In this document: positions 36,927-61,231 of the stretch, in pieces
How positions within the stretch are numbered: position 1 is the stretch's first letter
How the letters are laid out: every line of letters starts with the position of its first letter
Assembly: GCA_028715175.1 (NCBI GenBank)
Contig: JAQUSJ010000001.1
Span: 71,760 to 135,759, forward strand
Length of the DNA stretch: 64,000 bases
Origin: Candidatus Daviesbacteria bacterium
GTDB taxonomy: Bacteria; Patescibacteriota; Microgenomatia; Daviesbacterales; UBA10151
Direction of reading: 5' to 3'
Position numbers and translations under genes: made by a program
Notes under the pieces: model-generated
The model's database searches: none
The model's input: the letters and a program-made list of their open reading frames with translations, nothing else
Told to the model about the DNA's origin: nothing

Positions 36927-36988
36927 TGTCATCCTGAGGCGATTAGCCGAAGGATATGATTATATTCTTCACTTCGTTCAGAATGACG
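36927..36988. repeat. Palindromic repeat element, GTCATCCTGAGCG family (intergenic tatD/metG)
   Basis: 'tgtcatcctgaggcgattagccgaagga...cttcgttcagaatgacg' imperfect inverted repeat. Confidence 0.75.
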
Positions 36989-36998
36989 ATTCTCTTCA

Positions 36999-38420
36999 TT
37001 AAATCCTTGGAAATAGAGGAGGTTGCGATTTAATAGCTCCGGAAAATTGTTTTAAAATTTTTTCGGAAGTTTCGGGTAAAAAAGGTTGTAATTTTAGGTT
37101 TAGATATCTAATTGCGTCTACTACAACTTGCATAACATTGATTAAATTTTGTCCTTTGAGTTTCCATGGTTGTTGATTATTTATATAATGGTCAATGATT
37201 CTTATTTCATCCCATATTAATTTTAGCGCTTCATCAAATCTGTAATTTTCCAAAGCCTTTGCATATAGAGTTGTTATATCTCCTGACGTTGTCGGTATAC
37301 TTGTTACAAGTTTGTTTATTGAGGGATTATTGTCCGAAATTGTTATGTTTTCGCAGAGTTTGGCAACTCTTGCCACTAAGTTCCCTAATCCATTTGCTAA
37401 GTCTGCATTATATAAGCGATCAAGAGCATCCCATGAAAAATCGCCATCTTCACCAAATGGAAATGCAGCCAGCAAAACATATCTAGTTCCATCTACACCG
37501 TATTTTTCTACTAATTGATCTGGACTAATTACATTTCCTAAAGTCTTAGACATCTTTTGTCCATTAACAGTAAAAAACCCATGTGCGAAAATTTGTTTTG
37601 GTAGTTTTTCGTCAATTGCCAGAAGCATTGCCGGCCAAATTATTGCATGAAACCAAAGAATATCTTTGCCTACCAAGTGAAGATCTGCCGGCCAAAAATT
37701 ATTTTGCGATCCATAAGTATAGTAATTAATTAAAGCTTCTATCCAAACATAAGCTGTGTGAGAGCAGTCAAAAGGTAGTGGAATTCCCCATTCAAGATTC
37801 GCTCTTGAAATAGAGATATCCTCCAAACCCTGTTTGATTTTACCCAGTATTTCGTTTTTCCTTGATTGCGGACTAATTTTAATTGTGTCAGAAGTGATTA
37901 GTTGTTCTAACTGTTTTTGATAAGCTGTTAGTTTAAAGTAGTAATTCTCTTCTGAGTGTTCGATTGGTTTGGTTTGGTGATCAGGACACAAACCGTTGAC
38001 TAATTCTTCCGGCGACATAAATTTTTCATGCCCTACACAATACAATCCCTTATAAAGTCGGGGTTTAGCATCAATTGCGCCCTTATCGTAAAGTTTCTGT
38101 AAAAATTTCTGTGCCATTTTTATGTGATCTTCATCAGTAGTTCTAATAAATCTAACAAAATCAATATCTAATTTCTCCCAAGCTTGTTTGAATTCTTCTG
38201 AAATCTTATCAGCATAGTCCTTAGGTTGTTGATTATGTTTTTTGGCTGCTTCAGCTATTTTTGCACCATGTTCATCAGTGCCAACTAATAATCTGGCATC
38301 GTAACCTTTGCATTTCCAGTAACGGGTTAAAACATCAGCTGCTACTGTAGGATACGCATGGCCGATGTGGGGGACATCATTAACATAATAAATTGGAGTT
38401 GTAATAAAAAATTTATTCAT
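36999..38420 (-). CDS. metG: Methionine--tRNA ligase (compact form)
   Basis: 'PIYYVNDVPHIGHAY' (HIGH) and 'KMSKTLGNVISP' (KMSKS). Confidence 0.85.
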   Translation of the reverse strand: MNKFFITTPIYYVNDVPHIGHAYPTVAADVLTRYWKCKGYDARLLVGTDEHGAKIAEAAKKHNQQPKDYADKISEEFKQAWEKLDIDFVRFIRTTDEDHIKMAQKFLQKLYDKGAIDAKPRLYKGLYCVGHEKFMSPEELVNGLCPDHQTKPIEHSEENYYFKLTAYQKQLEQLITSDTIKISPQSRKNEILGKIKQGLEDISISRANLEWGIPLPFDCSHTAYVWIEALINYYTYGSQNNFWPADLHLVGKDILWFHAIIWPAMLLAIDEKLPKQIFAHGFFTVNGQKMSKTLGNVISPDQLVEKYGVDGTRYVLLAAFPFGEDGDFSWDALDRLYNADLANGLGNLVARVAKLCENITISDNNPSINKLVTSIPTTSGDITTLYAKALENYRFDEALKLIWDEIRIIDHYINNQQPWKLKGQNLINVMQVVVDAIRYLNLKLQPFLPETSEKILKQFSGAIKSQPPLFPRI

Positions 38421-38788: not shown

Positions 38789-38802
38789 ATATCAATTGTA
38801 AA

Positions 38803-40974: not shown

Positions 40975-40975
40975 A

Positions 40976-42169
40976 TTAGTTTTCTAAAAGCGCTGCGGCG
41001 TAATTTTCCAGTTCCTTTTGTTTGCCAGGGGAATATTTTTTTGCTTCAAAGTATTTTTTTAAAGCAGCAATAGGAGTTAAACTTTCTACATCTTTTCCTA
41101 AATCGATTTTTTCCCTTTCAACTTTTTCAATGTTTCGGGAAATTCCAGCTAAAATATGAGCGGAAGATAGTGCTTTTTTAATTTTGTCCATCTCAATATC
41201 TTTATCCAACTCTGCCGGTATATTTATTACCAGCCGGATAATTTTATCAGCAAGAGCGCACTTTTTAATTTCATCTAATACTATTTGGGTTGGGTCAAGA
41301 TCTGTAGTTTTTAAATTAACAGTAACTGTTAAAAATTTTCTTGCTCCTGAGGGAATAAATTTATAGCTTGTTTCAAATTTATCTGACGACTGACGACTGA
41401 TAGCTAATATCTCGACTATTATAAAACCTTTTTCTTCTTTCTCTTCGCCGAAATCTATCCGCTCTGGAGAACCGGAGTAAACAATTAGTGGTCCGGCACC
41501 TGCCGGACTAGAAAGAACTTGATGTTTGTGAATATGGCCTAAAGCCACATAAGAGATCCTTTTATCTTGAAGAAGCGGCAGAGGAATTGTGATATCGTTT
41601 CCGATAGCCAGTCCCTTTTCCGACCCAAAAACTGAACCTTCAATTTCGGCATGCGAGGCCAGTATTGCAGGTCCGCCAGCTGGCGGAGGCTTAATTTTTT
41701 CATACATAAGTTTTAATTTTTCGGCAACTTGCTTGTAGTCATTTTTATGGAGCCAGGGAAGAGTAATAACTTGTAAATTGCCGGATTTGGTCTTAATTTG
41801 CAAAAGTTCCGGAAATCTTGAAACCCAGACATTTTCTATCTCCAGGGCAGAGTAGATATCCAAAGTATTGGCTTTGCCTTCTGCATTTGGAGTGTCATGG
41901 TTTCCCACCACCAGCACAACAGGGATTTTTTTGGCCAGTATCTTAATTCTTTCTCCAAATCCCCGCTGTTGGGTGGGGTTTGGATCTCTGGTTTTATAGG
42001 CATCTCCTGCAAAAATGACTGCGTCAACCTGCTCTTCAAAAGCTTTTTCCACTATAAAATCAAAAGTCTTAAAAAAGTCGAGTAATCTGGTAGAAAGTCC
42101 GGTTTCCGGATCCAACCTGGTATAATTTTCCATACCAATATGCAGGTCGGAAAAATGAAGTAGTTTCAT
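40976..42169 (-). CDS. sbcD: SbcD/Mre11-like nuclease
   Basis: 'LLHFSDLHIG', 'GDAYKTRDP' and 'GNHD' calcineurin-like phosphoesterase motifs. It contains the in-frame repeat at 41383-41409. Confidence 0.85.
   Translation of the reverse strand: MKLLHFSDLHIGMENYTRLDPETGLSTRLLDFFKTFDFIVEKAFEEQVDAVIFAGDAYKTRDPNPTQQRGFGERIKILAKKIPVVLVVGNHDTPNAEGKANTLDIYSALEIENVWVSRFPELLQIKTKSGNLQVITLPWLHKNDYKQVAEKLKLMYEKIKPPPAGGPAILASHAEIEGSVFGSEKGLAIGNDITIPLPLLQDKRISYVALGHIHKHQVLSSPAGAGPLIVYSGSPERIDFGEEKEEKGFIIVEILAISRQSSDKFETSYKFIPSGARKFLTVTVNLKTTDLDPTQIVLDEIKKCALADKIIRLVINIPAELDKDIEMDKIKKALSSAHILAGISRNIEKVEREKIDLGKDVESLTPIAALKKYFEAKKYSPGKQKELENYAAALLEN
41383..41409. repeat. Repeat 'ctgacgactgacgactgatagctaat', in frame in sbcD (encodes 'ILAISRQSSDK')
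   Basis: Same family as 10530-10560 and 9886-9924. Confidence 0.8.
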
Positions 42170-42189
42170 CGGGGAGATTATATCATTGC

Positions 42190-43353
42190 TTGGTCAGGTA
42201 TAATATCCACATGTTCAGATGCCGTATAGATAAAGTTAGATCACACCTTAAAAAACAAAACCTAGATGCAGTTTTGATTTCTGCTGTATCCAATATTTGT
42301 TATCTTACTGGCTATGCTAATTTTTCTCAAAATGAGCGAGAAGCATATTTAATTATTACAAAAAATGAACAATTCATCATTACCGATGGTAGGTATTCGG
42401 GTGTAATAAAAAGACAAGTCCCCTATTTTAAATTACTGGAACTAACTGGTGAAAATTCTCTTAAAAATATTTTTGCAAAGTTTGCCCGTCTTAAAGTTTT
42501 GGGGATAGAAGAAGACGAAATAACTGTTTCAGAACATAAGATGTTAAAAAAACATTTTAAGAAAATGAAGCATCTGGATATTAAATCTCACAGATCAGTT
42601 AAAACTGATGATGAGATTAGAAAAATAGAGGAAGCTGCAAAATTAGGAGATAAAGCATTTAAGTATATTTTAGGGAAAATAAAAGAAGGTATTAGCGAAA
42701 AAGAATTGGCATATGAATTGGAATTATTTATCAAGAAAAATGGAGGAGAGTTGTCTTTTCCTCCGATTATTGCTTTTGGTCGAAACTCTGCCATACCACA
42801 TCATCAAACAGGAGAAACTAAATTGGATAAAAAAGAAGGACAGTTTATCCTCCTTGATTTCGGGGTGAAACTTGAAAATTATTGTTCAGATATGACAAGG
42901 ACCATAATTTTTGGAAAACCAACTAATAAACAAAAAAGAATATACGAAACAGTACTAAAAGCCCAGCAAAAAGCGATAGATTTTATAAATTCAAAAATTA
43001 AATCAGGTAAAAAAGTTAAGGCTTCTGATGCAGATAAAACTGCCAGAGATTTTATTATTTCCCAAAAATATCCAAATATTCCTCATTCTTTGGGACACGG
43101 CATCGGTTTACAAGTGCACGAACATCCCTCTCTTTCTTCCAAAAGCCGCGATATTTTAAAGACAGGGATGGTTTTTTCGATAGAGCCGGGGATATATTTA
43201 CCTGATTTCGGCGGGGTAAGAACTGAGGATCTATTTTGCATCAGCAAAATAGTCCCGAGCGAAACGAAGGGTTTATTTGTTTTGGGAAAAAATGACTTAA
43301 AGCAGTTAACTAATTCACCGAAATCAATCATTTCCATTCAAGCGTTAAGTTGA
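42190..43353 (+). CDS. M24-family Xaa-Pro aminopeptidase
   Basis: 'HSLGHGIGLQVHEHP' and the pita-bread metal ligand pattern. Confidence 0.8.
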   Translation: MVRYNIHMFRCRIDKVRSHLKKQNLDAVLISAVSNICYLTGYANFSQNEREAYLIITKNEQFIITDGRYSGVIKRQVPYFKLLELTGENSLKNIFAKFARLKVLGIEEDEITVSEHKMLKKHFKKMKHLDIKSHRSVKTDDEIRKIEEAAKLGDKAFKYILGKIKEGISEKELAYELELFIKKNGGELSFPPIIAFGRNSAIPHHQTGETKLDKKEGQFILLDFGVKLENYCSDMTRTIIFGKPTNKQKRIYETVLKAQQKAIDFINSKIKSGKKVKASDADKTARDFIISQKYPNIPHSLGHGIGLQVHEHPSLSSKSRDILKTGMVFSIEPGIYLPDFGGVRTEDLFCISKIVPSETKGLFVLGKNDLKQLTNSPKSIISIQALS

Positions 43354-43388
43354 CATTAATATTACGACCGTAGCATTAATGTTAACCA

Positions 43389-43904
43389 TTATTGCGAATA
43401 AAACCAGAAACTATCTATTTTTTTATATGGTTTCCAGTTTGGAAAATGGTAAGTTTGGGTAATGATTACTGTTTTCTTTTTTAATTCTTTTTTCAATTTT
43501 TCTTCTAATTTTTTAACACCTTTTGGTAAAAGATAAATATAGATTACATCAGCGTCAGCATAATTTTTTGAAAAAAGATTGCCATGATAAAATTTTACGT
43601 TCCCAGGCGTGGTCTGGGAAGCTGATTTTATGCGAGAATAAAGAACGCGCAGCCATGATTGTTCAATGCCCACTGAATGCGCTCCTAAGCTGGCTGCTGC
43701 AAAAACAACCCTGCCATCCCCGGATCCTAATTCATAAAACTTTTTTCCTCTTTTTACGCCAGCTAATTTCAAAATCTTTTTTATTTGATCCATTTTAGTG
43801 GGAACAAACGGTGCGTCAGTTCCGGCAAACCAGGATAGGGCTATAACGCAACCTATTAAGATGCCTCCGGAGATAATGAGTGATATATCCATATTTTGTG
43901 TCAT
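43389..43904 (-). CDS. Class I SAM-dependent methyltransferase (small)
   Basis: 'FYELGSGDGRVV' motif I. The annotated ATG lies inside repeat 43898-43968, so the true start may be Met5. Confidence 0.5.
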   Translation of the reverse strand: MTQNMDISLIISGGILIGCVIALSWFAGTDAPFVPTKMDQIKKILKLAGVKRGKKFYELGSGDGRVVFAAASLGAHSVGIEQSWLRVLYSRIKSASQTTPGNVKFYHGNLFSKNYADADVIYIYLLPKGVKKLEEKLKKELKKKTVIITQTYHFPNWKPYKKIDSFWFYSQ

Positions 43905-43968
43905 CCTGAACGTAGCGAAAGATCTTCCGTGGTCGCGGAAGATTGCCCGCTAATCGCTCGCAATGACG
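43898..43968. repeat. Palindromic repeat element, GTCATCCTGA family (intergenic MTase/femAB-like)
   Basis: 'tgtcatcctgaacgtagcgaaagatcttccg...cggaagattgcccgctaatcgctcgcaatgacgg'. Confidence 0.7.
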
Positions 43969-43972
43969 GGAA

Positions 43973-45040
43973 TTATTTCCCAATCAATTTTAGCAAAAAA
44001 ATTTTGAGTGGAGTTAAGCGGTCTACAGCAGTAAACAGCCAATATACCGGCCAGTTAAATACCAAATCATAAGTCCCGATATATTCTGTTAATTGTCCTC
44101 CATATCCCTGTTTAAACTTATGAAAGCCAAACCAGGGATCTTTTGGATTTGCATCAGGACCCAGGGCTCCCCACATGTCAAACTTTTTAAAACCCATTTT
44201 TTTACCTAATTTTATAGCTTCCCAGGCCACTAAATTATTTGCCATTACCTCCGGGTGGATTTTGGAAGAACCGCCGTAAGGGTAATAAAGAGTACCTTTA
44301 AAATTTAACAGCATCCAGGCAGTTAAGGGTAGTTGGTAGTAAGCAATAAGTAAACGAGCCATGCCGGCATTTTTCAGGGTTTGCCAGACTTTGCGGTGAT
44401 AGTTTTTATTATGTCCATGATAACCTTGTCTTTTGGTAGTTTCAAAATATAATTTTAAATAAATTTCAAAAGCCTCATCGTCCCTTCTTTCTTCCACTCT
44501 TACTCGATGTTTTTGGGCAACCTTGATGTTGTATCTGGTTTTCGGGTGCATTTTTTTTAAAAGTTCTTCTTCTGATTTTGTTAAATCAACAATAAAATTA
44601 TATTTAGTAAATAACGGTTTAGGGGATTTGATAAAATTCGTATCAACGCTGTCATTCTGAGCGATTAGCGAAGAATATAATTCTGGGTTTATATCCTTCG
44701 TTTCACTCAGGACGACAGGATGAATGTTAGCGATGACATCAGGCTCTATTTTTATGAAAGCGCAATTATTTTCCTGGCCGATTTTTTTTAAAGCTTTTGC
44801 TAATTCTTTGTTAGGGAATGGACCTTTTGGGAGGTAGCCGACGTATTGGTTTGTAAAGGGAATCTTATGTAAAGTTAGCTGGAAGGCTTTGGATAATTTG
44901 TTTCCGTGGTATATGCCGTAGCGCAGAAGCGGAATTTGTAGAGATTTTCTAAACTCTCCCCATTCGTATGACTGGATGACATGAGTAACTAATTTGTTGT
45001 ACTGTGATTTTTGTTTGTCGCCGATTGGTCGTAAATCCAT
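43973..45040 (-). CDS. FemAB-family peptidoglycan bridge-formation (aminoacyltransferase) protein
   Basis: FemABX-like length and the 'KTRYNIK' motif. It contains an in-frame palindromic element at 44650-44717. Confidence 0.6.
   Translation of the reverse strand: MDLRPIGDKQKSQYNKLVTHVIQSYEWGEFRKSLQIPLLRYGIYHGNKLSKAFQLTLHKIPFTNQYVGYLPKGPFPNKELAKALKKIGQENNCAFIKIEPDVIANIHPVVLSETKDINPELYSSLIAQNDSVDTNFIKSPKPLFTKYNFIVDLTKSEEELLKKMHPKTRYNIKVAQKHRVRVEERRDDEAFEIYLKLYFETTKRQGYHGHNKNYHRKVWQTLKNAGMARLLIAYYQLPLTAWMLLNFKGTLYYPYGGSSKIHPEVMANNLVAWEAIKLGKKMGFKKFDMWGALGPDANPKDPWFGFHKFKQGYGGQLTEYIGTYDLVFNWPVYWLFTAVDRLTPLKIFLLKLIGK
44650..44717. repeat. Palindromic repeat element, GTCATTCTGAGCG family, in frame in the FemAB-family gene (encodes 'VVLSETKDINPELYSSLIAQND')
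   Basis: 'gtcattctgagcgattagcgaagaatata...tatatccttcgtttcactcaggacgac'. Confidence 0.8.
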
Positions 45041-45130
45041 GCGACAAGTATATAAGGACCTGCTTCGTACTTCAATATGAATATTTTATTTCGTGCTCGC
45101 AGAACCTTGCCTTTTCGCTACGCGAAAACG

Positions 45131-45823
45131 TCAGAAGATTTGGATTTTGGCTTTTGTTTTAAGTTCCTGGAATTTTTCTGAAAAGATTTGAGTTAATTTT
45201 TGGTTTTTGAGATTATCGTAAGCTTCTTTTTCCTGTCCTGCAGAATCTGTTGCACGCAGCTGATCTTGATTTTGTTCTATAAATTTTGTGACTTCTTCCG
45301 CGGAAACTGTCGCATCGTTTGCGTAGAGTTTTTCAATTGTTAATTGCAATTTAATTTGATTTCTGATGCTTATCTTTGTTTGTCCCTGTTGAGCAAGCAT
45401 GGCGTCCAGAGTTTGCGCTCCGCCCAAACTTGTTTCTATTTCCGAGATTTTTTTATCAACATCCGCCTCTGATACTACCGCATGATTTTTTGCAGCTTCG
45501 TCCAAAATTATTTTCTCATTTATCATTTGAGTTAAGGTTTGAGAGCGGAAATCCCGATTAAGGCGCATCTGCAGCTCTAGATTATTGATAGGTGAGCCAT
45601 TTACTGTTGCAGCAACAAACCAATTCTTTTTGAATATTACCAAAAGCAGCAATCCTGTGATTATCAGGATAATATAAAATTTCTTTGAGGATCGGAAGTT
45701 TTTTAAAGAAGATAATTTATCCAGTAAATTATTAACTGTACTAAATGGATAATTCGGTTTTTGTTTAACAAGAGACTGTTTAGCCATTGACCGATAATAA
45801 CAGAAATAATTGTATTTTGGCAA
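45131..45823 (-). CDS. SurA N-terminal-domain-like periplasmic chaperone protein (real start probably near 45787)
   Basis: TM anchor followed by a SurA_N-like helical domain. No PPIase domain. Confidence 0.35.
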   Translation of the reverse strand: MPKYNYFCYYRSMAKQSLVKQKPNYPFSTVNNLLDKLSSLKNFRSSKKFYIILIITGLLLLVIFKKNWFVAATVNGSPINNLELQMRLNRDFRSQTLTQMINEKIILDEAAKNHAVVSEADVDKKISEIETSLGGAQTLDAMLAQQGQTKISIRNQIKLQLTIEKLYANDATVSAEEVTKFIEQNQDQLRATDSAGQEKEAYDNLKNQKLTQIFSEKFQELKTKAKIQIF

Positions 45824-45844
45824 GAGCTAATCTATGATGATTAT

Positions 45845-46486
45845 ATGCAAAGAGGTTCTGCCCAACTTCTAGTGGTTTTTATTGCTGTAACTGCTCTTGC
45901 GGCAGGTGGTTATTATTACTTAAGCGCTAAAGGCAAAAATCCTTTGCCAGCTATTAATGCAAATGTTGCTCCTTTAAAAACTCTTCAGTCCAGTGATTAT
46001 GCAAATCAAAGTTTGGGTTTTGGTTTTACATACCCGAAGAGGTTTTTCGCAAAAGATGATTCCGAAGATGAATTTAATAAGCGGGGCAATGGTGATTTCA
46101 GGAAGAATTTTAAAGGTTATGTTGGATATGAGCCGGGAAAATTTTTAGGAGCAGCGGTGGTGTTGGATAAAAATAACGATTACGAGCAAAACCCTTTTAC
46201 TGTTTGGGTTTTTAATAACCCGCAAAATTTAAGTATTGATAACTGGTATAAAAATTATTGGTATTATCCATTTGTCTGGGGAGATTTTACATATTCTGGA
46301 AAAGTTGTCTTAGCTCCAAAAGAAGAAGCCACAATTTCAGGGCAGCCGGCCAAATCCGGAGTTATTGATTATCAACCCGGAAAACCAAAATTTATTTATG
46401 TGGCAAAAGATGGGAAAATGTATTTATTCAGGGTGATTGGGGAAACTGGTAATCAGATTCTTTCCACTTTTAAATTCCTAAAGTAA
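45845..46486 (+). CDS. Hypothetical secreted or membrane-anchored protein
   Basis: N-terminal signal/TM, then an aromatic-rich domain. Confidence 0.3.
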   Translation: MQRGSAQLLVVFIAVTALAAGGYYYLSAKGKNPLPAINANVAPLKTLQSSDYANQSLGFGFTYPKRFFAKDDSEDEFNKRGNGDFRKNFKGYVGYEPGKFLGAAVVLDKNNDYEQNPFTVWVFNNPQNLSIDNWYKNYWYYPFVWGDFTYSGKVVLAPKEEATISGQPAKSGVIDYQPGKPKFIYVAKDGKMYLFRVIGETGNQILSTFKFLK

Positions 46487-46524
46487 GTAAATATCTACTC
46501 TTCGATTTCATTCAGGGTGAACAA

Positions 46525-47220
46525 TTATAAAAGATAGATATCCACAAATCTTGCAGTCCAGCCGGCAGTGCGAGTATCATCAAAGCCTAAATCAATGATA
46601 TTGCCTTTAATTGCCCCACCAGTATCACCGGCTATGGCCATGCCGTATCCTGGAACATAAGCCTTGCTTCGAAGTTTTATTACCTGGGGATCCACGGCAA
46701 TTACCCCTTTGCCGGCCCTCATGCCTATGGCTGTCCATTCGTTGCAACCCGGGCATCTAGAATCATAATGAGTGGCATAAACCCGCATTTTTTTCCAATA
46801 TTTAATTTCTCCATCCGGAGTCTGTAAAGTTTTCCAGACTATTTTGGTACCCCGCAAAATTTTTTTATCTTCGGCAGGTATTGTTTCAACAGAAATCAGT
46901 TCTCTTTCATATTCTTCCCCCTCTTTTGAATAAGTAATTTTATATATTTTTGTTTTTTTACCATCTGCTCCTTCTTCCAAGACTTTTTCTTCACCTGCTT
47001 CGGTTTCCGGATCATCTTGATAAACTGTTTTCTTAGCTAGAACTTCAGTTTCTTCCTGCAGTTTTTCTGTAAAAGAGGATTCGGTATGAACAGGTTGATT
47101 AACCGGCAAACTGTTGATTGGAGATCCCGTAGATTGTCCCAAAATAGCAGGGGGTTGCCAGAAAGTTTTGGCAAAGGTAGTCAGCGCAAATATTAAAATA
47201 ATTCCTAAATATTTTTCCAT
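46525..47220 (-). CDS. 3D-domain (MltA/RlpA-like) cell-wall-associated protein
   Basis: C-terminal 'YATHYDSRCPGCNEWTAIGMRAG...GDTGGAIKGNIIDL' 3D domain. Confidence 0.55.
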   Translation of the reverse strand: MEKYLGIILIFALTTFAKTFWQPPAILGQSTGSPINSLPVNQPVHTESSFTEKLQEETEVLAKKTVYQDDPETEAGEEKVLEEGADGKKTKIYKITYSKEGEEYERELISVETIPAEDKKILRGTKIVWKTLQTPDGEIKYWKKMRVYATHYDSRCPGCNEWTAIGMRAGKGVIAVDPQVIKLRSKAYVPGYGMAIAGDTGGAIKGNIIDLGFDDTRTAGWTARFVDIYLL

Positions 47221-47223
47221 TGT

Positions 47224-47265
47224 ATAGATCCTTCGACTCTCCGGCTTCCGCCGGATCGCTCAGGA
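47224..47265. repeat. Half palindromic element, identical over 42 bp to 60813-60854
   Basis: 'atagatccttcgactctccggcttccgccggatcgctcagga' is read at both loci. Confidence 0.85.
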
Positions 47266-47271
47266 CGCCTT

Positions 47272-49257
47272 TCAGGCGTTTAACCAGTCATCTTCGTCAA
47301 TTGAGTTTGATATATCACTTGCTGTATTGGGTTGATCTTTGTCTCTGTAATTTGTATTACTACTGATCAAGTTTTCCGGAATGTCTATTAAGAATCTGGA
47401 AACCAGGTTGTTGCTTCGTGTACCAAAGTACAATCTTTGCCCGGTATAAGTTAAATAAAGTTTTTCTTTGGCGCGGGTGATGCCGACATACATAAGTCTT
47501 CTTTCTTCTTCCAGTTCCCGGACATCCAGCATGGATCTGGAGTGAGGGAATAAACCTTCTTCCATGCCAACCATGAAAACAATTGGGAATTCCAATCCTT
47601 TGGCGCTATGGAGAGTCATTAAAGTTACGGCATCAACCGGCTGTTTGCTGTTAGTTTTTCGCTTTTGACCAGGTATGTTGCCGTTTTCCACCAGAGCCAC
47701 TTTTTCTAAAAACTCTGTTAAATCAGAGAACTGTTCCGCAACCGAGCGAAGCTCTTTAACATTTTCCGCGCGCATTTTGCCTTCTTCGCTGCTGTCATCA
47801 AGATATGCCAAATACCCTGTTGCCTGTAGGATTTTGTCTAAAAGTTCTAAGGTAGTGTAAGGCAGATTGTCATTCTGAGGCGGAGCCGAAGAATATAAAT
47901 TAGATCCTTCGTTGTCGCTCAGGATGACAGAGCGAAGCTCTATCGCTTTTGATAATCTGCCTTTACCAATTTTTTCGGCTCTCTTTAAAGAAATAGAATC
48001 TTCGGGATTTTGGAGTAAACGGAGATAGGCGAGAATATCCTTAATTTCTTTTCTGGCATAGAAGCTGACCCCGCCTACTAATTTATAAGGTATGCCGACT
48101 TTCAGGAATTGTTCCTCCAGAGCCCGGGATTGGGCATTAGTTCTGTAAAGAATAGCATATGAGTTTAGAGTTCGTAGTTCGTAGTTCGTAGTTTTTTTGT
48201 CTTTACTATGAACTAATAACTCTGAACTATGAACTATTTTGTCTACGACAAAATTAGCTTCTTCAACCTCATTTCTTGTTTCAACTACCTCTATTTTTTC
48301 TCCTCCATCTTTCTTGGTCCAGAGTTTTAAGATGGGATGAGATTTATTTTTGGAGATGACAGCAAAGGCAGCATCCAGGATATTTTGAGTGGAACGGTAG
48401 TTTTGTTCCAGATTAAAGATCGCTACATTCGGATAATCCTTTTGGAAATTAACAATATTGCGAAAATCTGCTCCTCTAAACGAGTACACACTTTGGCTTG
48501 CGTCCCCCACAACACAAATATTTTTATGGCGGTTACTCAAGTATTTTGAAATCAGATATTGAGCAGGATTAGTATCCTGGTATTCATCAATTAAAATATA
48601 CTTAAATTGAATTTGGTATCTGGTTAAAATTGCTGGTTCGGCTTGGAATAATTTAATTACATATAATAATAAATCATCAAAATCCAGAGCATGGTTTCTT
48701 TCCAGAATTTTTTGATATTCCAAATAAATTTTCGCTACAATTTCCTGAAAATAACCCCGGGCATATTGAGGGTATTCTAAAGAAGAAATTAATTCATTTT
48801 TTGCCCCTGATATAGTGGATCTAACAGAAAAAGGAGAAGTTTTTTGAAGCGGGATATTTAAATTACCCATAGCTTCTTTGACAGCATCCAAAGCATCACC
48901 TTCATCATAGATAGCAAAACCGGGAGGCAACTTCAAGACTTTGCCGTCCCGGCGCAAAACCCTGGCGCAAAAACTATGAAATGTTCCCATCATTGGTTCG
49001 TGGTTTGCTGCCAGCGGTTCATTGGCCAAAAGTTTCCTGATACGTTCCATCATCTCGCCGGCCGCTTTATTAGTGAAAGTCAAAACCAGGATATTTTCCG
49101 GAGGAATTTTCTTTTCGGAAATTAAATAAGCCACCCGGTAGGTTAAAACTCTGGTTTTGCCTGAACCGGCTCCGGCCAAAATAAGAGTCGGACCCTCAGT
49201 TGCTTTAACAGCTTTCTGTTGTGCGGGATTTAGATCATTTAAAAGAGAATTGGGCAT
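47272..49257 (-). CDS. pcrA: UvrD/PcrA-family ATP-dependent DNA helicase, carrying three in-frame repeat insertions
   Basis: 'LILAGAGSGKTRVLTYRVAYLI' Walker A plus helicase motifs. It contains repeats at 47866-47930 and 48163-48240. Confidence 0.85.
   Translation of the reverse strand: MPNSLLNDLNPAQQKAVKATEGPTLILAGAGSGKTRVLTYRVAYLISEKKIPPENILVLTFTNKAAGEMMERIRKLLANEPLAANHEPMMGTFHSFCARVLRRDGKVLKLPPGFAIYDEGDALDAVKEAMGNLNIPLQKTSPFSVRSTISGAKNELISSLEYPQYARGYFQEIVAKIYLEYQKILERNHALDFDDLLLYVIKLFQAEPAILTRYQIQFKYILIDEYQDTNPAQYLISKYLSNRHKNICVVGDASQSVYSFRGADFRNIVNFQKDYPNVAIFNLEQNYRSTQNILDAAFAVISKNKSHPILKLWTKKDGGEKIEVVETRNEVEEANFVVDKIVHSSELLVHSKDKKTTNYELRTLNSYAILYRTNAQSRALEEQFLKVGIPYKLVGGVSFYARKEIKDILAYLRLLQNPEDSISLKRAEKIGKGRLSKAIELRSVILSDNEGSNLYSSAPPQNDNLPYTTLELLDKILQATGYLAYLDDSSEEGKMRAENVKELRSVAEQFSDLTEFLEKVALVENGNIPGQKRKTNSKQPVDAVTLMTLHSAKGLEFPIVFMVGMEEGLFPHSRSMLDVRELEEERRLMYVGITRAKEKLYLTYTGQRLYFGTRSNNLVSRFLIDIPENLISSNTNYRDKDQPNTASDISNSIDEDDWLNA
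47866..47930. repeat. Palindromic repeat element, GTCATTCTGAGGCG...CGCTCAGGATGAC, in frame in the helicase gene (encodes 'SVILSDNEGSNLYSSAPPQNDN')
   Basis: Read directly. Confidence 0.85.
48163..48240. repeat. Two adjacent heptamer arrays, (GTTCGTA)x3 and (TATGAAC)-like x4, in frame in the helicase gene (encode 'IVHSSELLVHSKDKKTTNYELRTLNS')
   Basis: Read directly. Confidence 0.8.
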
Positions 49258-49873: not shown

Positions 49874-49904
49874 TGTTAACCAGCTTGTCAGTGCACAAAA
49901 AACC

Positions 49905-49950
49905 GCTCGCGCGACCAAGTCGCTCGCTTGGGATTTGTTTCGCGCCAAGC
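49905..49950. repeat. GC-rich nested hairpin element 'gcgcgaccaagtcgctcgcttgggatttgtttcgcgc', related to the GC-rich insert in tsaD (10095-10130, 'gacttcgctcgctgcgg')
   Basis: Stems gcgcga/tcgcgc and ccaag/cttgg are read directly. Confidence 0.5.
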
Positions 49951-50005
49951 AATAACTTAAAGACATGTATTTCGGTGGTGCGCTCAACTGCATCACATTT
50001 TTTGA

Positions 50006-50716
50006 TTGCTACTGACTTCGCTGGTTTTTTCTTATATGAAAAATATTTGGATCATAGCTAATTGGAAATCTAACAAAAATATTGCTGAGGCACTTGATTG
50101 GATTTCAAAAGTGGGGCCAAATCTACCCAAAAGAGAAAATTTTAAAGTAGTAGTTTGTCCCAGCTTTAGCGCTCTATCAGAAGTGAAAAAAGCCATCACT
50201 GTAGGTAATTTTCCTCTTATAGTTGGAGCGCAGGATTTATCGCCTCTTGGTGCAGGTGCCTATACAGGAGAAGAGAGTGCAGAACTTCTAAAAGAGTTAA
50301 TTGATTTGGCAATCTTGGGCCATTCTGAAAGAAGACAAAATTTTGGGGAAACAGACGAAATGTTGGCCAAAAAAGTTGCTCAGGCAAATGCATACAGCAT
50401 TATTCCTGTAGTTTGTGTTCAAAGCTCAGATACTCCGGTGCCGGAGGGATGTAAATTGATTGCTTATGAACCGATCTTCGCTATTGGTACAGGTAATCCG
50501 GATACCCCGGAAAACGCCAATCAGGTGGCAGGGGTTTTGAAAGAAAAACATGGTCCGGCACCTGCCGGATTAGAGGTATTGTATGGCGGAAGCGTTACCA
50601 GTGAAAATGCCAAAGCTTTCATATTTCAATCTAACATTAACGGACTGCTAATCGGTAAAGCCTCTTTAGATGCGGAGGAGTTTATCAAAATATGTAAAGT
50701 TATGGAGCTGATTTAA
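50006..50716 (+). CDS. tpiA: Triosephosphate isomerase (probable true start at ATG 50039)
   Basis: 'IIANWKSNKN', 'GHSERR' and 'AYEPIFAIGTG'. Confidence 0.85.
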   Translation: MLLTSLVFSYMKNIWIIANWKSNKNIAEALDWISKVGPNLPKRENFKVVVCPSFSALSEVKKAITVGNFPLIVGAQDLSPLGAGAYTGEESAELLKELIDLAILGHSERRQNFGETDEMLAKKVAQANAYSIIPVVCVQSSDTPVPEGCKLIAYEPIFAIGTGNPDTPENANQVAGVLKEKHGPAPAGLEVLYGGSVTSENAKAFIFQSNINGLLIGKASLDAEEFIKICKVMELI

Positions 50717-51964: not shown

Positions 51965-52580
51965 AGCTTCCAGAAGGAAATTAGGAGAACTGCGCAAGAA
52001 ATTTGATCCTGATAATGTTGTAGTTTTTGATGCTCAAGCAAGTTCAGGACAAGTAATTGCCAATTTAATGACGGTTCCTATGTTTTCCGAGGAAAGGTTG
52101 ATTATCTGGGAAAACCCAATTGATGTTTTTGAACCACCAACTACCAACTACCAACTACCAACTACTCTAATCCTATGGTTTGATCATATTATAGATACAA
52201 AAAAATGGCCGGGGTTTGAATACCTGTTTTTCCCGGAAAGTAAAGAAATTTCCGTATTTCCATTTTTGGATTATTTGGCAGCTCATGATAAAAAAGCTTT
52301 CTTAGAAGTGGAGAAATTAAAAAAAGCAAATTTCGATGTCCACTATCTCATAACTATGGTTTTTTATCTGTTGCGGAATTTGGTAGTTACTCCTAAAACC
52401 GCGCCTCCCTTTGTTAAGCAAAAACTTGCCAAACAAAGAAGTAATTTTAGCAAAGAAAGATTAATAAATCTTTACAGGGATATTTTAGAAATTGAATTTA
52501 AAATTAAGTCAGGTTTATTGGAAAAAGACCAGGCAGAATTTTTACTGGTTAATAAATTCATTGGGAGCCTAATGATTTGA
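51930..52580 (+). CDS. holA: DNA polymerase III delta subunit-like protein
   Basis: 'LLVLHGPAIEASRRKL...LMTVPMFSEERLII' resembles the HolA N-terminus. It contains heptamer array 52133-52170. Confidence 0.4.
   Translation: MKLLVLHGPAIEASRRKLGELRKKFDPDNVVVFDAQASSGQVIANLMTVPMFSEERLIIWENPIDVFEPPTTNYQLPTTLILWFDHIIDTKKWPGFEYLFFPESKEISVFPFLDYLAAHDKKAFLEVEKLKKANFDVHYLITMVFYLLRNLVVTPKTAPPFVKQKLAKQRSNFSKERLINLYRDILEIEFKIKSGLLEKDQAEFLLVNKFIGSLMI
52133..52170. repeat. Tandem heptamer (ACTACCA)x4, in frame in the holA-like gene (encodes 'PPTTNYQLPTTL')
   Basis: Read directly. Confidence 0.85.
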
Positions 52581-54904: not shown

Positions 54905-54939
54905 GACTTCATTATACTAGGATAATACACGATTGAAAA

Positions 54940-57002: not shown

Positions 57003-57026
57003 GTTGAATTTGCTACAATACCCTCT

Positions 57027-58862
57027 GTGAATATCAGAAATTTCTCAATTATTGCTCATATTGACCACGGTAAATCTACTTTGGCAGACAGGCTGCTGGA
57101 GATTTGCCATACGGTTCCACCGGATAAAATGAAGCCGCAGCTTTTAGATTCTTTGGCGCTGGAGCGTGAACGTGGTATTACTATAAAACTTGCTCCTGTA
57201 AGATTGAAATACAATTTAGACGGTGTGGAATATGTCCTAAACCTGATTGATACACCGGGACATGTTGATTTTTCTTATGAGGTTTCCAGAGCTCTGGCAG
57301 CAGTTGAAGGCGCAATACTTTTAGTAGATGCAACCCAGGGTATTCAAGCGCAAACTTTGGCACACGGTTTGGCAGCTCTAGAGCAAAATTTAACGTTAAT
57401 TCCGGTAATAAATAAAATTGATTTACCGAATGCGGATATTGAATCAACAAAAAAACAACTTATAGAAACATTCGGATTTGCAGCAGAGGAGATATTGCTA
57501 GTGTCAGGCAAGACTGGTCAGGGTGTGCAGAAGCTTTTGGAAATAATAATTGAAAAAGTGCCTCCGCCTAAAATAGATCTTTTGTCACAAAGCTTCTCAG
57601 GACTGCAAGTCCTTCGGGCTCTTGTTTTTGATTCGTTTTTTGACAGCTTTAAAGGGGTGGTTGCCCAGGTACGAATTGTTGAAGGCCAGACACCAAAAAC
57701 TCAAGCCCCGATTATTTTTCTGGGGACTAAAGCTTCGGGCCATATCCTGGAAACCGGATTTTTTGCTCCTCAGCTTATTCCAAATAACGGTCTAAAAGCA
57801 GGAGAGATAGGTTATATTGCCACAGGCATTAAAGAGCCGGATTTAGTCAGAGTTGGTGATACAATAACAAGTTTATCGAATATCGAATATGGTACATCGG
57901 AAGACAAAAACGATAACCGATTAACGATAAACGATATACAACCTTTGCCAGGTTATAAGCAGGTTAAACCAATGGTTTTTGTGGGACTTTTTCCCATAGA
58001 CGCTGACGAGTATTTTGAATTGAAAGAAGCTTTGGCTAAATTTAGATTAACTGATCCTGCTTTTTCTTATACTCCGGAGCAATCACGAGCTTTAGGAGCC
58101 GGTTTTCGATGCGGGTTTTTAGGGTTACTTCATGCAGAGGTGGTACAGGAGAGGTTACTAAAAGAATTTAATGTCGATCTTTTGGCGACTGCTCCGTCAG
58201 TTGAATATTTGCTGGATAGAAAACCTATTATTTCACCAAGCGATTTGCCGCAAGGAACCAATATCAAGAATTTAGAAGAACCATGGGTAAATTTAAGGAT
58301 TTTTGTACCACAAACTTATATCGGTTCGGTTATGGAATTAGTACAAGATAAGAGGGGTAAGTTTTTAAACATGCAGCACTTTGGGATCCAAGTTGAACTG
58401 TTGTATGAGATGCCGCTTTCTGAGATGGTGACTAACTTTTATGATAAATTAAAATCAGTTTCTTCCGGTTTTGCTTCCCTGGACTGGGAGTTTTTGGATT
58501 TTCGGGAAGCGGATGCGGTCAGGGTAGATATTTTGGTTTCCGGGGAAAAAGTAGATGCTCTCTCAACTATTGTTTTTAGACCTAAGGCGGAAAGTTTTGG
58601 CAGGAGGATGGTGGAAAAATTAAAAGAAGTGCTGCCTCGGCAAAATTTTACTATTGCAATTCAAGCTGCTATTGGCGGGACTATTATTGCCAGGGAAACA
58701 GTCAGTCCTTTCAGAAAAGATGTTACAGCTAAACTTTATGGAGGAGATAGGACCAGAAAAGACAAACTTTTGGAAAAACAGAAAAAGGGTAAAAAGAAAA
58801 TGAAGACGATCGGTAGGGTACAGATACCGCAGGAAGCATTTTTAAGCGTTTTAAAATCTTAA
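57027..58862 (+). CDS. lepA: Elongation factor 4 (LepA)
   Basis: 'IRNFSIIAHIDHGKSTLADRLL', 'DTPGHVDF' and 'NKIDL' G-domain motifs, plus the LepA C-terminal domain. Confidence 0.95.
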   Translation: MNIRNFSIIAHIDHGKSTLADRLLEICHTVPPDKMKPQLLDSLALERERGITIKLAPVRLKYNLDGVEYVLNLIDTPGHVDFSYEVSRALAAVEGAILLVDATQGIQAQTLAHGLAALEQNLTLIPVINKIDLPNADIESTKKQLIETFGFAAEEILLVSGKTGQGVQKLLEIIIEKVPPPKIDLLSQSFSGLQVLRALVFDSFFDSFKGVVAQVRIVEGQTPKTQAPIIFLGTKASGHILETGFFAPQLIPNNGLKAGEIGYIATGIKEPDLVRVGDTITSLSNIEYGTSEDKNDNRLTINDIQPLPGYKQVKPMVFVGLFPIDADEYFELKEALAKFRLTDPAFSYTPEQSRALGAGFRCGFLGLLHAEVVQERLLKEFNVDLLATAPSVEYLLDRKPIISPSDLPQGTNIKNLEEPWVNLRIFVPQTYIGSVMELVQDKRGKFLNMQHFGIQVELLYEMPLSEMVTNFYDKLKSVSSGFASLDWEFLDFREADAVRVDILVSGEKVDALSTIVFRPKAESFGRRMVEKLKEVLPRQNFTIAIQAAIGGTIIARETVSPFRKDVTAKLYGGDRTRKDKLLEKQKKGKKKMKTIGRVQIPQEAFLSVLKS

Positions 58863-58865
58863 TTT

Positions 58866-59837
58866 ATGAAAATAATAAAACCTGCAAAACTTTGTCTAGG
58901 AGATACCATTGGGATTGTGGCTTCATCTTTGCCAGTCCTTGATACCCATAAAGAGAAATATCAAAAAGGGAAAAAGTTGATTCAGGAAATGGGTTTTAAG
59001 ATTAAAGAAGGGAAAACTATTGGCCAGAAGAGATGGTGGATGGCAGGAACCCCTAAAGAGGTAGCCCAAGATATAAATTCCATGTTCTTAGATAAACAGA
59101 TTAGGGCAATTATGGCTCATACTGGAGGATATTCTGCAATCTCGGTGATAGAACATTTAGATTATGGTTTGATAGTCCAAAATCCAAAACCATTTATTGG
59201 GATGTCTGATACGACTATTTATCATCTGGCGATTTTTGAAAGATGCGGTATGGTGGGATTCCATATGGATGATTTAAGTTATGGATTCGGCAGGGAATTG
59301 AAGGAAGGAATGGAAAACTGGCCTAAGCTAAACCAAGAACTATTTTTGAAGTTTCTAACCAAAACTCAAGCTCCCGGAATAATAAAACCAATCACTGAAT
59401 GGGAAGAATGGAAAAAAGGGCAAGCTTCTGGCCATTTGATGGGAGGAATTTTAGAAAGAATTTCTACATTATCCGGTACAAAATATTTTCCTAATTTGGA
59501 TTTGTTTGAAGGTGGTGTGTTATTTTGGGAAGAAATTGGTAAAGATTTATCAGAAATCTACCAATATCTTTATCAGCTAAAAAATATGGGGATTTTTGAA
59601 AAAATAAACGGGATGTTGATTGGAAAAATTAAATATTCCAAACCGCTGAGACAACAAGTAGTAGAACCTACCCTAAAAGAAATGGTCTTGGAAATTTTGA
59701 AAGATTATAATTTTCCTATCATGGCTAATATGGATTTTGGCCATTTTACCGTCAATATCCCCATGCCAATTGGTATCAAAGTTTCTTTTGATACTGCCAA
59801 AAAAGAATTAAAATTTTTAGAAGGAGCAGTTGTTTAA
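58866..59837 (+). CDS. ldcA: LD-carboxypeptidase (S66 family, muramoyltetrapeptide carboxypeptidase-like)
   Basis: 'LCLGDTIGIVASS' and 'IRAIMAHTGGYS' Ser/His-containing blocks. Confidence 0.75.
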   Translation: MKIIKPAKLCLGDTIGIVASSLPVLDTHKEKYQKGKKLIQEMGFKIKEGKTIGQKRWWMAGTPKEVAQDINSMFLDKQIRAIMAHTGGYSAISVIEHLDYGLIVQNPKPFIGMSDTTIYHLAIFERCGMVGFHMDDLSYGFGRELKEGMENWPKLNQELFLKFLTKTQAPGIIKPITEWEEWKKGQASGHLMGGILERISTLSGTKYFPNLDLFEGGVLFWEEIGKDLSEIYQYLYQLKNMGIFEKINGMLIGKIKYSKPLRQQVVEPTLKEMVLEILKDYNFPIMANMDFGHFTVNIPMPIGIKVSFDTAKKELKFLEGAVV

Positions 59838-60486
59838 TATGAATAAAATTAAAGCAGTGCTTTTTGATATGGATGGACTGATGGTGGACACTGAACCTAT
59901 ACACCTTCGGGCTTTTAATTATGCACTGGGGAAATATGGCAAACATTTAACAGAGGAGGGAAATACCAGAAGGTATATTGGAACTCCTGATATTGATGGA
60001 GCAAAGGATATGGTGTTGAGATTTAGTTTACCTATATCTGCTCAAGAGCTTGTTATGGTTAAGAAAGCAAGGGTTAAAGAACTGCTGACAAGTCTAGAAC
60101 CAGAACCAGGTCTAATTGAACTGCTGGCAAACTTGAAGCAAAACGATTACAAAGTTGCAATTGCTTCCAGTTCTTACTTAGAAACGATAAGAAAAATTAT
60201 TCAAGATCTGGGAGTTGCTAAGATGATTGATAAATTAGCTTCTGCTGAAGAAGTCAAACAAGGTAAACCAGCACCTGATGTGTATTTACTAGCTGCAGAA
60301 AAATTAGGGGTAAGCCCTAGTGAATGTTTAGTGCTAGAAGATGCACCAAAAGGAGTTCAAGCAGGCAAGTTAGCTGGAATGAAAGTTTTTGCAATTCCCA
60401 GTCAGTACACAAAAGATGGGGATTTTAGTTTGGCAGATAAAGTATTGAGCAGTTTGTCTGAGGTGTTTGATTTAATTAACCTCTGA
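59830..60486 (+). CDS. HAD-superfamily hydrolase (beta-phosphoglucomutase-like subfamily IA)
   Basis: 'AVLFDMDGLMVDTE' motif I and 'VLEDAPKGVQAG' motif IV. Confidence 0.75.
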   Translation: MFNMNKIKAVLFDMDGLMVDTEPIHLRAFNYALGKYGKHLTEEGNTRRYIGTPDIDGAKDMVLRFSLPISAQELVMVKKARVKELLTSLEPEPGLIELLANLKQNDYKVAIASSSYLETIRKIIQDLGVAKMIDKLASAEEVKQGKPAPDVYLLAAEKLGVSPSECLVLEDAPKGVQAGKLAGMKVFAIPSQYTKDGDFSLADKVLSSLSEVFDLINL

Positions 60487-61231
60487 TAATTTTACAACTG
60501 GGACATCTTAGGGATTCTGCCTCATAAATTTTGGCGACTTGGTTTGATAATTTAAAGATTAATTCTGATCCCTCGTCAACTTTAAAAATATCAGGATTAT
60601 TGTCAAAAGACAGAGTGGCAGCTCCCCTAACCAATTTAAAAGTAGCTGTATCCTCATCCTTGAAAAAAACAGCTGGAATTTTTTCAGTAGTATTGTTAAA
60701 AGCTAACCCCCAACCTTTTTTAAAAGTTTGTCCGGTGATGCTTTTAAAATAACCGGTGGAGCCAAAAGGAGTAGATAAAACTATTCCGTCTCCAATGAAA
60801 AGCTGATTATTTATAGATCCTTCGACTCTCCGGCTTCCGCCGGATCGCTCAGGATGACTCGTTTCGCTCGTCACCTGGAAACGGATAGTATGTATAGGTT
60901 GGGCATTCCTGATGACAAAATCATTTAATGCTGTAAATGTCTGATATAAAATTGTAGTTTCCAGCTTTTTATACTCTTTTGTTTTTAACCCTCCTTCAAG
61001 CAGGCGCTTTAATAGAGTTTTTTCATCATGTTCGGGACATTTTTTACAAACGGAACTGGCCCTAATAGGTAATTTGGGAATTCCCGGATAAATTCTTTCT
61101 GAATACAAAAGAGTACCGTCTCCACCATAACTTATGATTACGTCAGGATTGGAATGAACTATTTCAAAACCGAAGCTTTTTACAAGCCCTATTATGTTTT
61201 TTGCATTTTTACCAATTAGTAATGTTTTCAT
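60476..61231 (-). CDS. nadK: NAD kinase, with an in-frame palindromic-element insertion
   Basis: 'GGDGTLL' and 'GSTGY' motifs. The inserted element is translated as 'ETSHPERSGGSRRVEGSINN'. Confidence 0.8.
   Translation of the reverse strand: MKTLLIGKNAKNIIGLVKSFGFEIVHSNPDVIISYGGDGTLLYSERIYPGIPKLPIRASSVCKKCPEHDEKTLLKRLLEGGLKTKEYKKLETTILYQTFTALNDFVIRNAQPIHTIRFQVTSETSHPERSGGSRRVEGSINNQLFIGDGIVLSTPFGSTGYFKSITGQTFKKGWGLAFNNTTEKIPAVFFKDEDTATFKLVRGAATLSFDNNPDIFKVDEGSELIFKLSNQVAKIYEAESLRCPSCKIIRG
60813..60860. repeat. Half palindromic element (GATCCTTCG...CGCTCAGGATGAC) in frame in nadK; 42 bp identical to 47224-47265
   Basis: Read directly. Confidence 0.85.

Follow-up and report, generated by a model that had tools for sequence, protein, structure and literature searches.

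How does a palindromic repeat come to lie in frame within a helicase, an NAD kinase and an aminoacyl-tRNA synthetase, and what kind of DNA is it? The question is raised by a 64-kb stretch (hereafter the window; 38.5% G+C) of a metagenome-assembled Candidatus Daviesbacteria genome, within the Patescibacteria or Candidate Phyla Radiation (CPR), in which a first reading made from the sequence alone had noticed six copies of a 60-70-bp palindrome, three of them inside genes. Every one of these copies was found at the coordinates given for it, and the occurrence of the family both between genes and in frame within them stands, but the 60-70-bp palindrome is not its unit. The repeating unit is a single arm of about 25-45 nt, made of an unpaired (T/C)GTC tag, a hairpin opening with A-T/T-A and a short tail, and the longer palindromes are head-to-head dimers of such arms. 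Close relatives differ by the gain, loss and exchange of copies, with no target-site duplication. The arms are probably non-autonomous elements of repetitive extragenic palindromic (REP) type that belong to the (C/T)GTC-tagged superfamily. Selfish or neutral DNA of this kind is already known, and no earlier report of it was found for this lineage.

The tagged hairpin and its copies in the window

The sequence-only reading had proposed that the core 13-mer GTCATCCTGAGCG be counted against chance. With at most two mismatches it occurs 10 times in the 64-kb window, as compared with 0.57 ± 0.67 expected (maximum 3) from 100 dinucleotide shuffles of the same DNA. A scan restricted to GTCAT followed by a hairpin gives 14 matches vs 5.4 ± 2.2 in shuffles, and adds three loci beyond the range first read, at 206-237, 7173-7232 and 19900-19929. 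All three lie within open reading frames (ORFs), and therefore six of the nine loci in the window are intragenic (UvrD, FemAB, NadK, valyl-tRNA synthetase or ValRS, MurB and a membrane-protein ORF). The window holds five head-to-head dimers and four single arms, with one doubtful tail-to-tail pair at 7222-7264. The base preceding GTC in the 14 matches is T in eight, C in two and A in four, three of the last resembling chance hairpins; two more arms, with the degenerate tags GTCGTCC and GGCGTCC, fall outside the scan. A generic pattern, GTC plus any 5-bp hairpin, was discarded as too noisy (67 matches vs 52 ± 7 in shuffles). The loci and two remnants are as follows, z being the fold score against shuffles:

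206-237, + strand: single REP arm with the sequence t-GTC-ATCCCGAC-gaat-GTCGGGAT-cca-TAAATAA, within ORF 28-363(+) and in frame, peptide SSRRMSGSINK
7173-7232, - strand: head-to-head dimer, in frame in the ValRS ORF 6853-9006(-), peptide SVILACPESDSRVANAPQNDN; DNA fold z -5.0
19900-19929, - strand: single arm GTCATTCTGAGTGAAGCGAAGAAT, in the MurB ORF 19410-20378(-), peptide VVILSEAKNITT
36927-36988, + strand: head-to-head dimer of a C-type and a T-type arm, intergenic, with the stop of ORF 36999-38420(-) on one side and the probable TatD start (~36907) on the other
43252-43271, + strand: degenerate arm remnant GTCCCGAGCGAAACGAAGGG, in an intergenic stretch missing in the related contig L001
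43898-43968, + strand: head-to-head heterodimer of a CCTGA-type and a TTGCGAG-type arm, lying between the FemAB stop (43973) and the methyltransferase start; DNA fold z -3.6
44650-44717, - strand: head-to-head dimer, in frame in the FemAB-family ORF 43973-45040(-), residues 109-130, peptide VVLSETKDINPELYSSLIAQND; RNA fold z -7.5
45051-45135: degenerate remnant
47223-47270, - strand: single arm enclosing a nested CCGGC-GGAA-GCCGG hairpin, its tag degenerate (GGCGTCC), directly 3' of the UvrD coding sequence
47866-47930, - strand: head-to-head dimer, in frame in the UvrD/PcrA ORF 47272-49257(-), residues 443-464, peptide SVILSDNEGSNLYSSAPPQNDN; RNA fold z -5.4
60812-60859, - strand: single arm, likewise enclosing a nested hairpin, in frame within the NAD kinase (NadK) ORF 60476-61231(-), residues 125-142, peptide SHPERSGGSRRVEGSINN

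The most widespread form of the arm has the consensus T-GTC-ATYCT-GA-GC-GNA-GC-GA-AGRAT-CT, which can be read as an unpaired tag and a stem of five Watson-Crick pairs, followed by a tandem G.A/A.G, a GC clamp of two pairs and, at the tip, a GNA triloop. It was sought, with Y and R left free, in IMG/VR and in one genome per GTDB species, and the figures that follow hold among the matches listed. In 308 arms from 240 loci, the Y/R pair is C-G 169 times and T-A 131 times, with only 8 wobbles or mismatches, and all four bases occur at the triloop N. GTC is preceded by T in 108 of the 148 arms from genomes and in 141 of the 166 from viruses, and by C in 26 and 22, respectively (overall, T in 73-85% and C in 13-18%). 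The retrieved loci contain 173 head-to-head dimers; under one strict pattern, 295 arms are unpaired and 22 paired. In the window and its relatives, the stems vary (ATTCT/AGAAT, ATCCT/AGGAT, ATTGC/GCAAT, ATCCCGAC/GTCGGGAT) while tag, AT start and tail persist, the stems of the arms listed all beginning AT...AT except at 44716 and 47269 (both GT). Three window dimers join a C-type arm (ATCCT/AGGAT) to a T-type arm (ATTCT/AGAAT): each pairs perfectly with itself, and arm to arm they mismatch.

As the hairpin proposal had expected, dimers are far more stable than their shuffles, both as DNA (z -2.8 to -5.0) and as RNA (z -3.0 to -7.5). The single arm 206-237 (DNA fold -8.5 kcal/mol, z -3.4) has an 8-bp stem, a 4-nt loop and a CCA tail, the CGTC-type geometry discussed below. 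The consensus arm is centred on GCGNAGC, which we take to be the extraordinarily stable DNA mini-hairpin motif reportedly described by Hirao, Yoshizawa and colleagues in the 1990s. This motif is a lead toward a single-stranded-DNA form, not a test of such a form; the oligonucleotide d(ATCCTGAGCGAAGCGAAGGAT) is predicted to be an extra-stable hairpin with GNA loop and tandem GA.

The arms at 47223-47270 and 60812-60859 had been taken for half elements. They are instead complete single units, each with its tag, its tail and a hairpin enclosing the nested stem-loop. Their near-identity is real, with different limits: 46 of 48 nt are identical, the unbroken run is 43 nt, and the 47224 copy reaches 47270. 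The UvrD stop codon is itself within a hairpin, ACGCC-TGAAA-GGCGT, adjoining this arm.

The three coding copies first noticed are indeed in frame, and their translations hold the peptides then read, VVLSETKDINPELYSSLIAQND (FemAB), SVILSDNEGSNLYSSAPPQNDN (UvrD) and ETSHPERSGGSRRVEGSINN (NadK), the NadK copy being one base out of phase (aGT CAT CCT GAG vs GTC ATC CTG AGC). Peptides such as VILSDNEGSNLYSSAPPQNDN are the predicted translation products of the intragenic inserts; an NCBIfam scan of the element peptides gave no match. One of the three reading frames on each strand holds a stop codon. In other phyla, the lengths of the dimers fall about equally into the three classes modulo 3 (8, 7 and 7, among the matches listed), so that it is selection, and not the element itself, that accounts for the in-frame state of intragenic copies.

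Filled, empty and exchanged sites

Two syntenic contigs allow the sites to be compared: L001, an ENA contig with ~80-84% nucleotide identity to the window, and relative C (contig JAQTPP010000009.1 of GCA_028712705.1), with ~85-92%. At the UvrD site 47866-47930, L001 has exactly 57 nt fewer (ELHSNNLPY vs ELRS[VILS...PQND]NLPY) and C has the unexpanded linker. The single arm 47223-47270 is missing in both relatives, as is the heterodimer 43898-43968, where their FemAB and methyltransferase genes overlap. At the FemAB site 44650-44717, L001 carries a TTGCGAG-type dimer and C the window's own dimer, and the intergenic dimer 36927-36988 (DNA fold z -2.9) is kept at the same site in C (C 26189-26248). 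C in turn has dimers within the methyltransferase and a tRNA synthetase, both without counterpart in the window.

The heterodimer had been credited with supplying the methyltransferase start. An ATG does lie within it, at 43904-43902 in its terminal GGATGAC, but this is only where the longest ORF has its first start codon. The orthologues in both syntenic relatives begin at the ATG of MDISLIISGG (window 43892-43890). Judging from this alignment, the true start is probably that ATG, four codons downstream of the element, the element-borne one being an artefact of ORF calling. An exact-sequence look-up of the methyltransferase returned no record with either start.

The window's UvrD, NadK and FemAB proteins are each 100% identical to entries at NCBI from a contig of 743,708 bp. 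The linkers were also measured in the 120 closest homologues of each protein:

UvrD linker: modal length 11 residues (81 of 120); at least 6 residues longer in 28; window, 26 residues
NadK linker: modal length 7 residues, with a short linker in about 86 of 120; at least 6 residues longer in 34; window, 25 residues
FemAB linker: modal length 16 residues, with a short linker in about 75 of 120; at least 6 residues longer in 37; window, 37 residues

The empty sites in the syntenic relatives and the short linkers in most homologues bear out the view that these are insertions and not conserved protein segments. Most of the longer linkers hold peptides that can be recognised as translated from other tagged hairpins (VIASEAKQS..PRND, VIPAEAGIH..GMT, SHPGLDPGSI, SSLRKQGSI). 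Within one loop, the start of the insert shifts by several codons between homologues, which fits independent insertions filtered by protein tolerance.

The proposal that the inserts fall in permissive loops is supported for four proteins, by predicted models and alignment gaps rather than solved structures. In the AlphaFold model of NadK, whose predicted local distance difference test (pLDDT) has a mean of 88, strands 116-122 and 144-147 bracket the insert, which is coil and has pLDDT <50 at 129-137. In that of FemAB (mean pLDDT 90.4), residues 109-127 are <50, matching the insert at 109-130. Both inserts are thus low-confidence coil flanked by strands with pLDDT >90. The UvrD insert coincides with a break, located between residues 421 and 480 of PcrA, in the alignment to 1pjr, and that of ValRS faces a 21-residue gap in Thermus thermophilus ValRS 1gax. 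From these models, the insert sites appear to mark naturally permissive loops. MurB is a different case: compared with 48 representatives and PDB 4pyt, the arm peptide VVILSEAKNITT sits where the native protein has a strand-turn-strand, and adds one residue net. Here the repeat has replaced native codons, its sequence now being part of the fold.

Turnover is seen at the NadK site, where five relatives have five different hairpin interiors inside a common outer GTCATCC and GGATCYATAA, and a sixth (L246) is empty. Between the window and C, 92.6% identical over the alignment spanning NadK, 31 nt in one replaces 13 unrelated nt in the other, which excludes point mutation as the source. The NadK arms of C and L245 have in common the loop ACTTGA, while one pair of their stems has changed from C-G to G-C in a compensatory way, and the 3' 15-mer of the window arm 206-237 is identical to that of C's NadK arm. 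In arm density, the extremes among Daviesbacteria contigs are L246 (none in 21 kb) and C (9 in 29 kb), with the 14 scan matches of the 64-kb window in between; one sub-clade has therefore seen an expansion of the family. Over 172 head-to-head dimers, no target-site duplication was detected, the direct-repeat score of their flanks being 3.89 vs 3.93 ± 0.08 after permutation. Three sites that had looked suggestive by eye were dropped after this null result.

Kinship, mobility and competing explanations

The closest known counterparts are the CGTC REPs (Di Nocera, De Gregorio & Rocco 2013, BMC Genomics 14:522; PMC3733652). By the definition given there, these have the tag CGTC, often TGTC or CCTC, a stem of 8-9 bp whose first two positions are AT, a loop of 4-5 nt and a 3-nt tail (consensus CCA); head-to-head dimers predominate, tail-to-tail ones are rare, and there is no dedicated transposase. 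Intragenic units are reported, many in repair genes, including UvrD/REP helicase, and in tRNA synthetases, and the Rickettsia conorii elements RPE-6 and RPE-4 (for Rickettsia palindromic element) are identified as CGTC-1 and CGTC-4. Five phyla, and no CPR genome, were surveyed there.

Compared by this written definition and the peptide lists, the Daviesbacteria arms agree in their unpaired (C/T)GTC tag, A-T/T-A stem start, head-to-head dimers with variable spacers, and in-frame genic units in UvrD and an aminoacyl-tRNA synthetase; no transposase was seen to recur beside them in 240 loci. The canonical 8-bp stem, 4-5-nt loop and CCA tail are present at window 207-229 and C 24661-24727, and the 8-9-bp stem, 4-5-nt loop and 3-nt tail also in the NadK arms of C, L245 and L247. 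In two frames, arm C 24705-24727 encodes VIPAKAGI and SFPRKRES, which are among the peptides given for R. conorii CGTC-1 (RPE-6) in PMC3733652. Besides the CPR host, a difference is that two thirds of the window loci are intragenic, whereas the REPs described there are mostly extragenic. Such a high intragenic fraction parallels Rickettsia rather than the typical REP hosts. The likeness to RPEs drawn at first sight is upheld, and proves closer than was then seen, in that the arm anatomy is that of CGTC/TGTC-tagged REPs, among them RPE-4 and RPE-6, tolerated in genes; the word "selfish" remains an interpretation.

As to the Rickettsia elements themselves, the common traits are in-frame palindromic repeats in conserved genes of a small-genome bacterium, missing from orthologues, situated in loops and read in different frames. 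In UvrD, FemAB, NadK and ValRS, the repeat is an in-frame insertion missing from orthologues; in MurB it is a replacement. Ogata and colleagues reportedly described RPE-1 to RPE-8 in 2000 and 2002. The classic case, RPE-1, is 100-150 bp long and is not known to be related in sequence to the window arms. An indirect sequence likeness to RPEs lies in the peptides encoded by C 24705-24727; the window subtype (VILSE, SHPER and QND peptides), in a host of another phylum, has no counterpart among the Rickettsia units listed in PMC3733652.

A more distant comparison is with the GTAG-tagged REP/REPIN elements and their REP-associated tyrosine transposases (RAYTs; Nunvar 2010, PMC2817692; Bertels & Rainey 2011, PMC3116915). 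These likewise have a tag followed by a hairpin, inverted doublets forming a longer hairpin, no target-site duplication and a mobilisation presumed to act on single-stranded DNA. The tag here is, however, (T/C)GTC and not GTAG or GTGG, and a RAYT-like neighbour was seen in none of the 240 arm-bearing loci. Moreover, GTAG REPs are mostly species-specific, unlike the arm described here, near-identical across phyla among the matches listed.

Several points weigh against placing the arms among the REPs as mobile, selfish insertions. The CTGAGCG subtype has a 3-nt GNA loop, a tandem G.A and tails ATA, CTA or CTT instead of CCA, and its peptides (VILS.., ..QND) are outside the intragenic units listed in PMC3733652. 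It is sometimes equipped with a nested hairpin, and its stem, of five Watson-Crick pairs and a GC clamp, has nine positions including two G.A, or else, with the last pair open, 8 bp around a loop of 5 nt. Short single arms fold no better than shuffles by nearest-neighbour energies (z -0.3 to -2.1). Simple insertion fails to account for MurB, where the arm is a replacement. The 24-mer is near-identical in >20 phyla among the matches listed, which is hard to square with neutral, lineage-specific selfish DNA. Finally, no gene recurs beside the arms in 240 loci and no mobilising enzyme was found there, and the transposition step is therefore pure inference; clustering the 8,082 ORFs of these loci gave phage structural proteins and housekeeping families as the only recurrent ones.

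How could such arms nevertheless move? A single-stranded-DNA hairpin mechanism without target duplication is the best inference. Copies would spread as single-stranded DNA hairpins, by means of a trans-acting enzyme or of host replication and repair. Those landing in genes would survive when the frame is kept, the stop-containing frame avoided and a permissive surface loop hit, and would then be translated as disordered linkers, while hairpin-mediated deletion and short-homology conversion between copies could account for the turnover. A further step, which we put forward as a doubtful one, starts from the 24-nt mini-hairpin GTC-ATYCT-GA-GC-GNA-GC-GA-AGRAT, common to >20 phyla (among the matches listed) and phage contigs and possibly still active in a CPR lineage. 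It might point to a widely transferred or universal, non-RAYT, hairpin-specific activity that cuts and joins single-stranded DNA. Were this true, such an activity would be the missing mobiliser of CGTC REPs, RPE-4 and RPE-6, and the polymorphic Daviesbacteria genomes would offer a route to it by phylogenetic profiling.

Could the arms rather be functional cis-elements kept by selection, acting in transcript stabilisation or termination, in ribosome or polymerase pausing, or in nucleoid protein or gyrase binding? This is unlikely. The strict stem covariation and the conserved tag and tail across >20 phyla, among the matches listed, are what selection would leave, but covariation may also stem from the copying of a few master types. 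The intergenic copies at 36927, 43898 and 47224 lie directly 3' of the stops of co-directional genes; the genic copies, by contrast, are in six unrelated proteins with no obvious regulatory logic. The tag is on the sense strand in four of four single arms, the orientation comparison being limited to these four, in a window whose GC skew is positive over most of its length and near zero at 32-48 kb. Long ORFs in other phyla contain far fewer of the arms than of random positions (13% vs 68%, among the matches listed), as is typical of extragenic REPs for which a role as RNA has been suggested (PMC3733652). Against this stand the presence or absence of copies between ~90% identical relatives, with no compensating feature, and an arm density that varies from none to 9 per 20-30 kb from one Daviesbacteria contig to another. 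No Rfam family matches the elements either: at gathering score, the window yields only a SAM riboswitch, and a permissive scan of 43800-48000 gave no credible match on them. A reading of CTGA...GGATGA as a box C/D or k-turn motif was rejected because the two motifs are merely complementary arms.

It is very unlikely that the inserts are adaptive, the host diversifying surface loops of UvrD, FemAB and NadK by peptides that matter. Different repeat-derived peptides do occur in the same loops of 28-37 of 120 Daviesbacteria homologues, but at any one site they are mutually unrelated and predicted to be disordered, and most homologues are without inserts. One and the same DNA is translated in a different frame from gene to gene, and the variation of insert positions by several codons is again what independent insertions filtered by tolerance would produce. 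The MurB arm, which stands in for a native structural turn, and the excess of intragenic REPs in repair genes, UvrD among them, that Di Nocera et al. report (PMC3733652) are the remaining arguments for adaptation. As for ordinary MITEs (miniature inverted-repeat transposable elements), cut-and-paste deletion derivatives of a DDE-transposase insertion sequence, they are scarcely credible here, since the resemblance of dimers to terminal inverted repeats (GTCATYCTGAG...CTCAGRATGAC) around a 16-62-nt spacer and weak AT-rich 8-9-nt flank similarities at three window or relative sites are set against the missing duplication signal in 172 dimers, single arms that are common and complete, the self-folding of every arm, heterodimers such as 43898-43968, the lack of a recurring transposase gene in 240 loci and a size, 25-70 nt, below that of typical MITEs.

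Other repeats of the region, and what the arms mean

The hairpins are not the only repeats of the window. Tandem heptanucleotide runs form a second class, found on both strands at 10524-10560, 17421-17451, 36276-36312, 41378-41401 and 52132-52166. They include CTGACGA repeated 3-4 times and CCAACTA repeated 4 times, and the run 41382-41401 is missing in C. The same heptamer classes give 7-residue periodic peptides (PTTNYQL, SVVSRQS, DNGQLKI, VTGNRLQ) in the FemAB variable loop of many relatives. In-frame inverted heptamer arrays are present in UvrD (48160-48237, peptide IVHSSELLVHSKDKKTTNYELRTLNS) and in LepA/EF4 (57876-57941, peptide SNIEYGTSEDKNDNRLTINDIQ); at the UvrD array, C and L001 each have a different GC-rich palindromic insert, which makes it a second insertion hotspot in UvrD. 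The window runs resemble the short tandemly repeated repetitive (STRR) sequences of cyanobacteria; Mazel and colleagues in 1990 and Elhai and colleagues in 2008 reportedly described these heptamer repeats and the cyanobacterial small dispersed repeats. The latter are hairpins of 21-27 nt, found in coding regions, variable between relatives and co-occurring with tandem heptanucleotide repeats as in the window; their sequences and hosts differ from those here.

A third family consists of the 13-nt palindrome CACCTCSGAGGTG, two copies of which in MurB (20100-20144) encode THLRGEEMLLHLGGV, a net addition of about 11 residues relative to 48 homologues. A 68-nt element bounded by CACCTCGG...CCGAGGTG is present in a G5/3D-domain gene of L001 (12195-12262) and C (14920-14987), and not in the window. 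A 78-nt direct repeat, 96% identical, occurs at 25539-25616 and 30223-30300, 4.7 kb apart.

UvrD genes also differ on a larger scale. In some Daviesbacteria, UvrD is about 1,000 residues long and carries an intein, with Pfam Intein_splicing/Hint matches (L243 3453-6518; homologues P0003, P0033, P0050, P0093 and P0115); C has 1,092 extra nt at window ~48487, and the window UvrD is without intein. Two stretches missing in C, of 165 nt (49874-50038) and 644 nt (59831-60474), seem to be small indels at the level of genes, with no relation to the hairpin repeats, the second matching ORF 59830-60486 (218 residues) between a peptidase S66 gene and NadK. Among RNA families, the S-adenosylmethionine (SAM) riboswitch RF00162 is found at 12956-13058 (+ strand; 49.7 bits, above gathering score). 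A sub-threshold match to RF03531 ("C. difficile sRNA included into helicase gene") at 47438-47532 (- strand; 49.3 vs gathering 65.2 bits, E 2e-6), in the C-terminal coding region of UvrD, is probably conserved coding sequence and not RNA.

Literature searches by the strings GTCATTCTGAG and GAGCGAAGCGAAG returned only primers and unrelated papers, and no paper linking REPs or palindromic elements with CPR/Patescibacteria was found. With the arms, the invasion of essential genes by palindromic repeats in the manner of Rickettsia is extended to the Candidate Phyla Radiation, and together with the two other repeat classes they make up most of the length differences seen between close relatives. 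For annotation, such repeats can be the source of false start codons, of proteins that are annotated as too long and of low-complexity "domains" in CPR bacteria. For protein engineering, the inserts flag loops of UvrD, FemAB, NadK and ValRS that seem naturally permissive. Near-identical metagenome genomes with filled, empty and swapped sites would be good material in which to look for the mobilising enzyme of tag-GTC REPs and RPEs.

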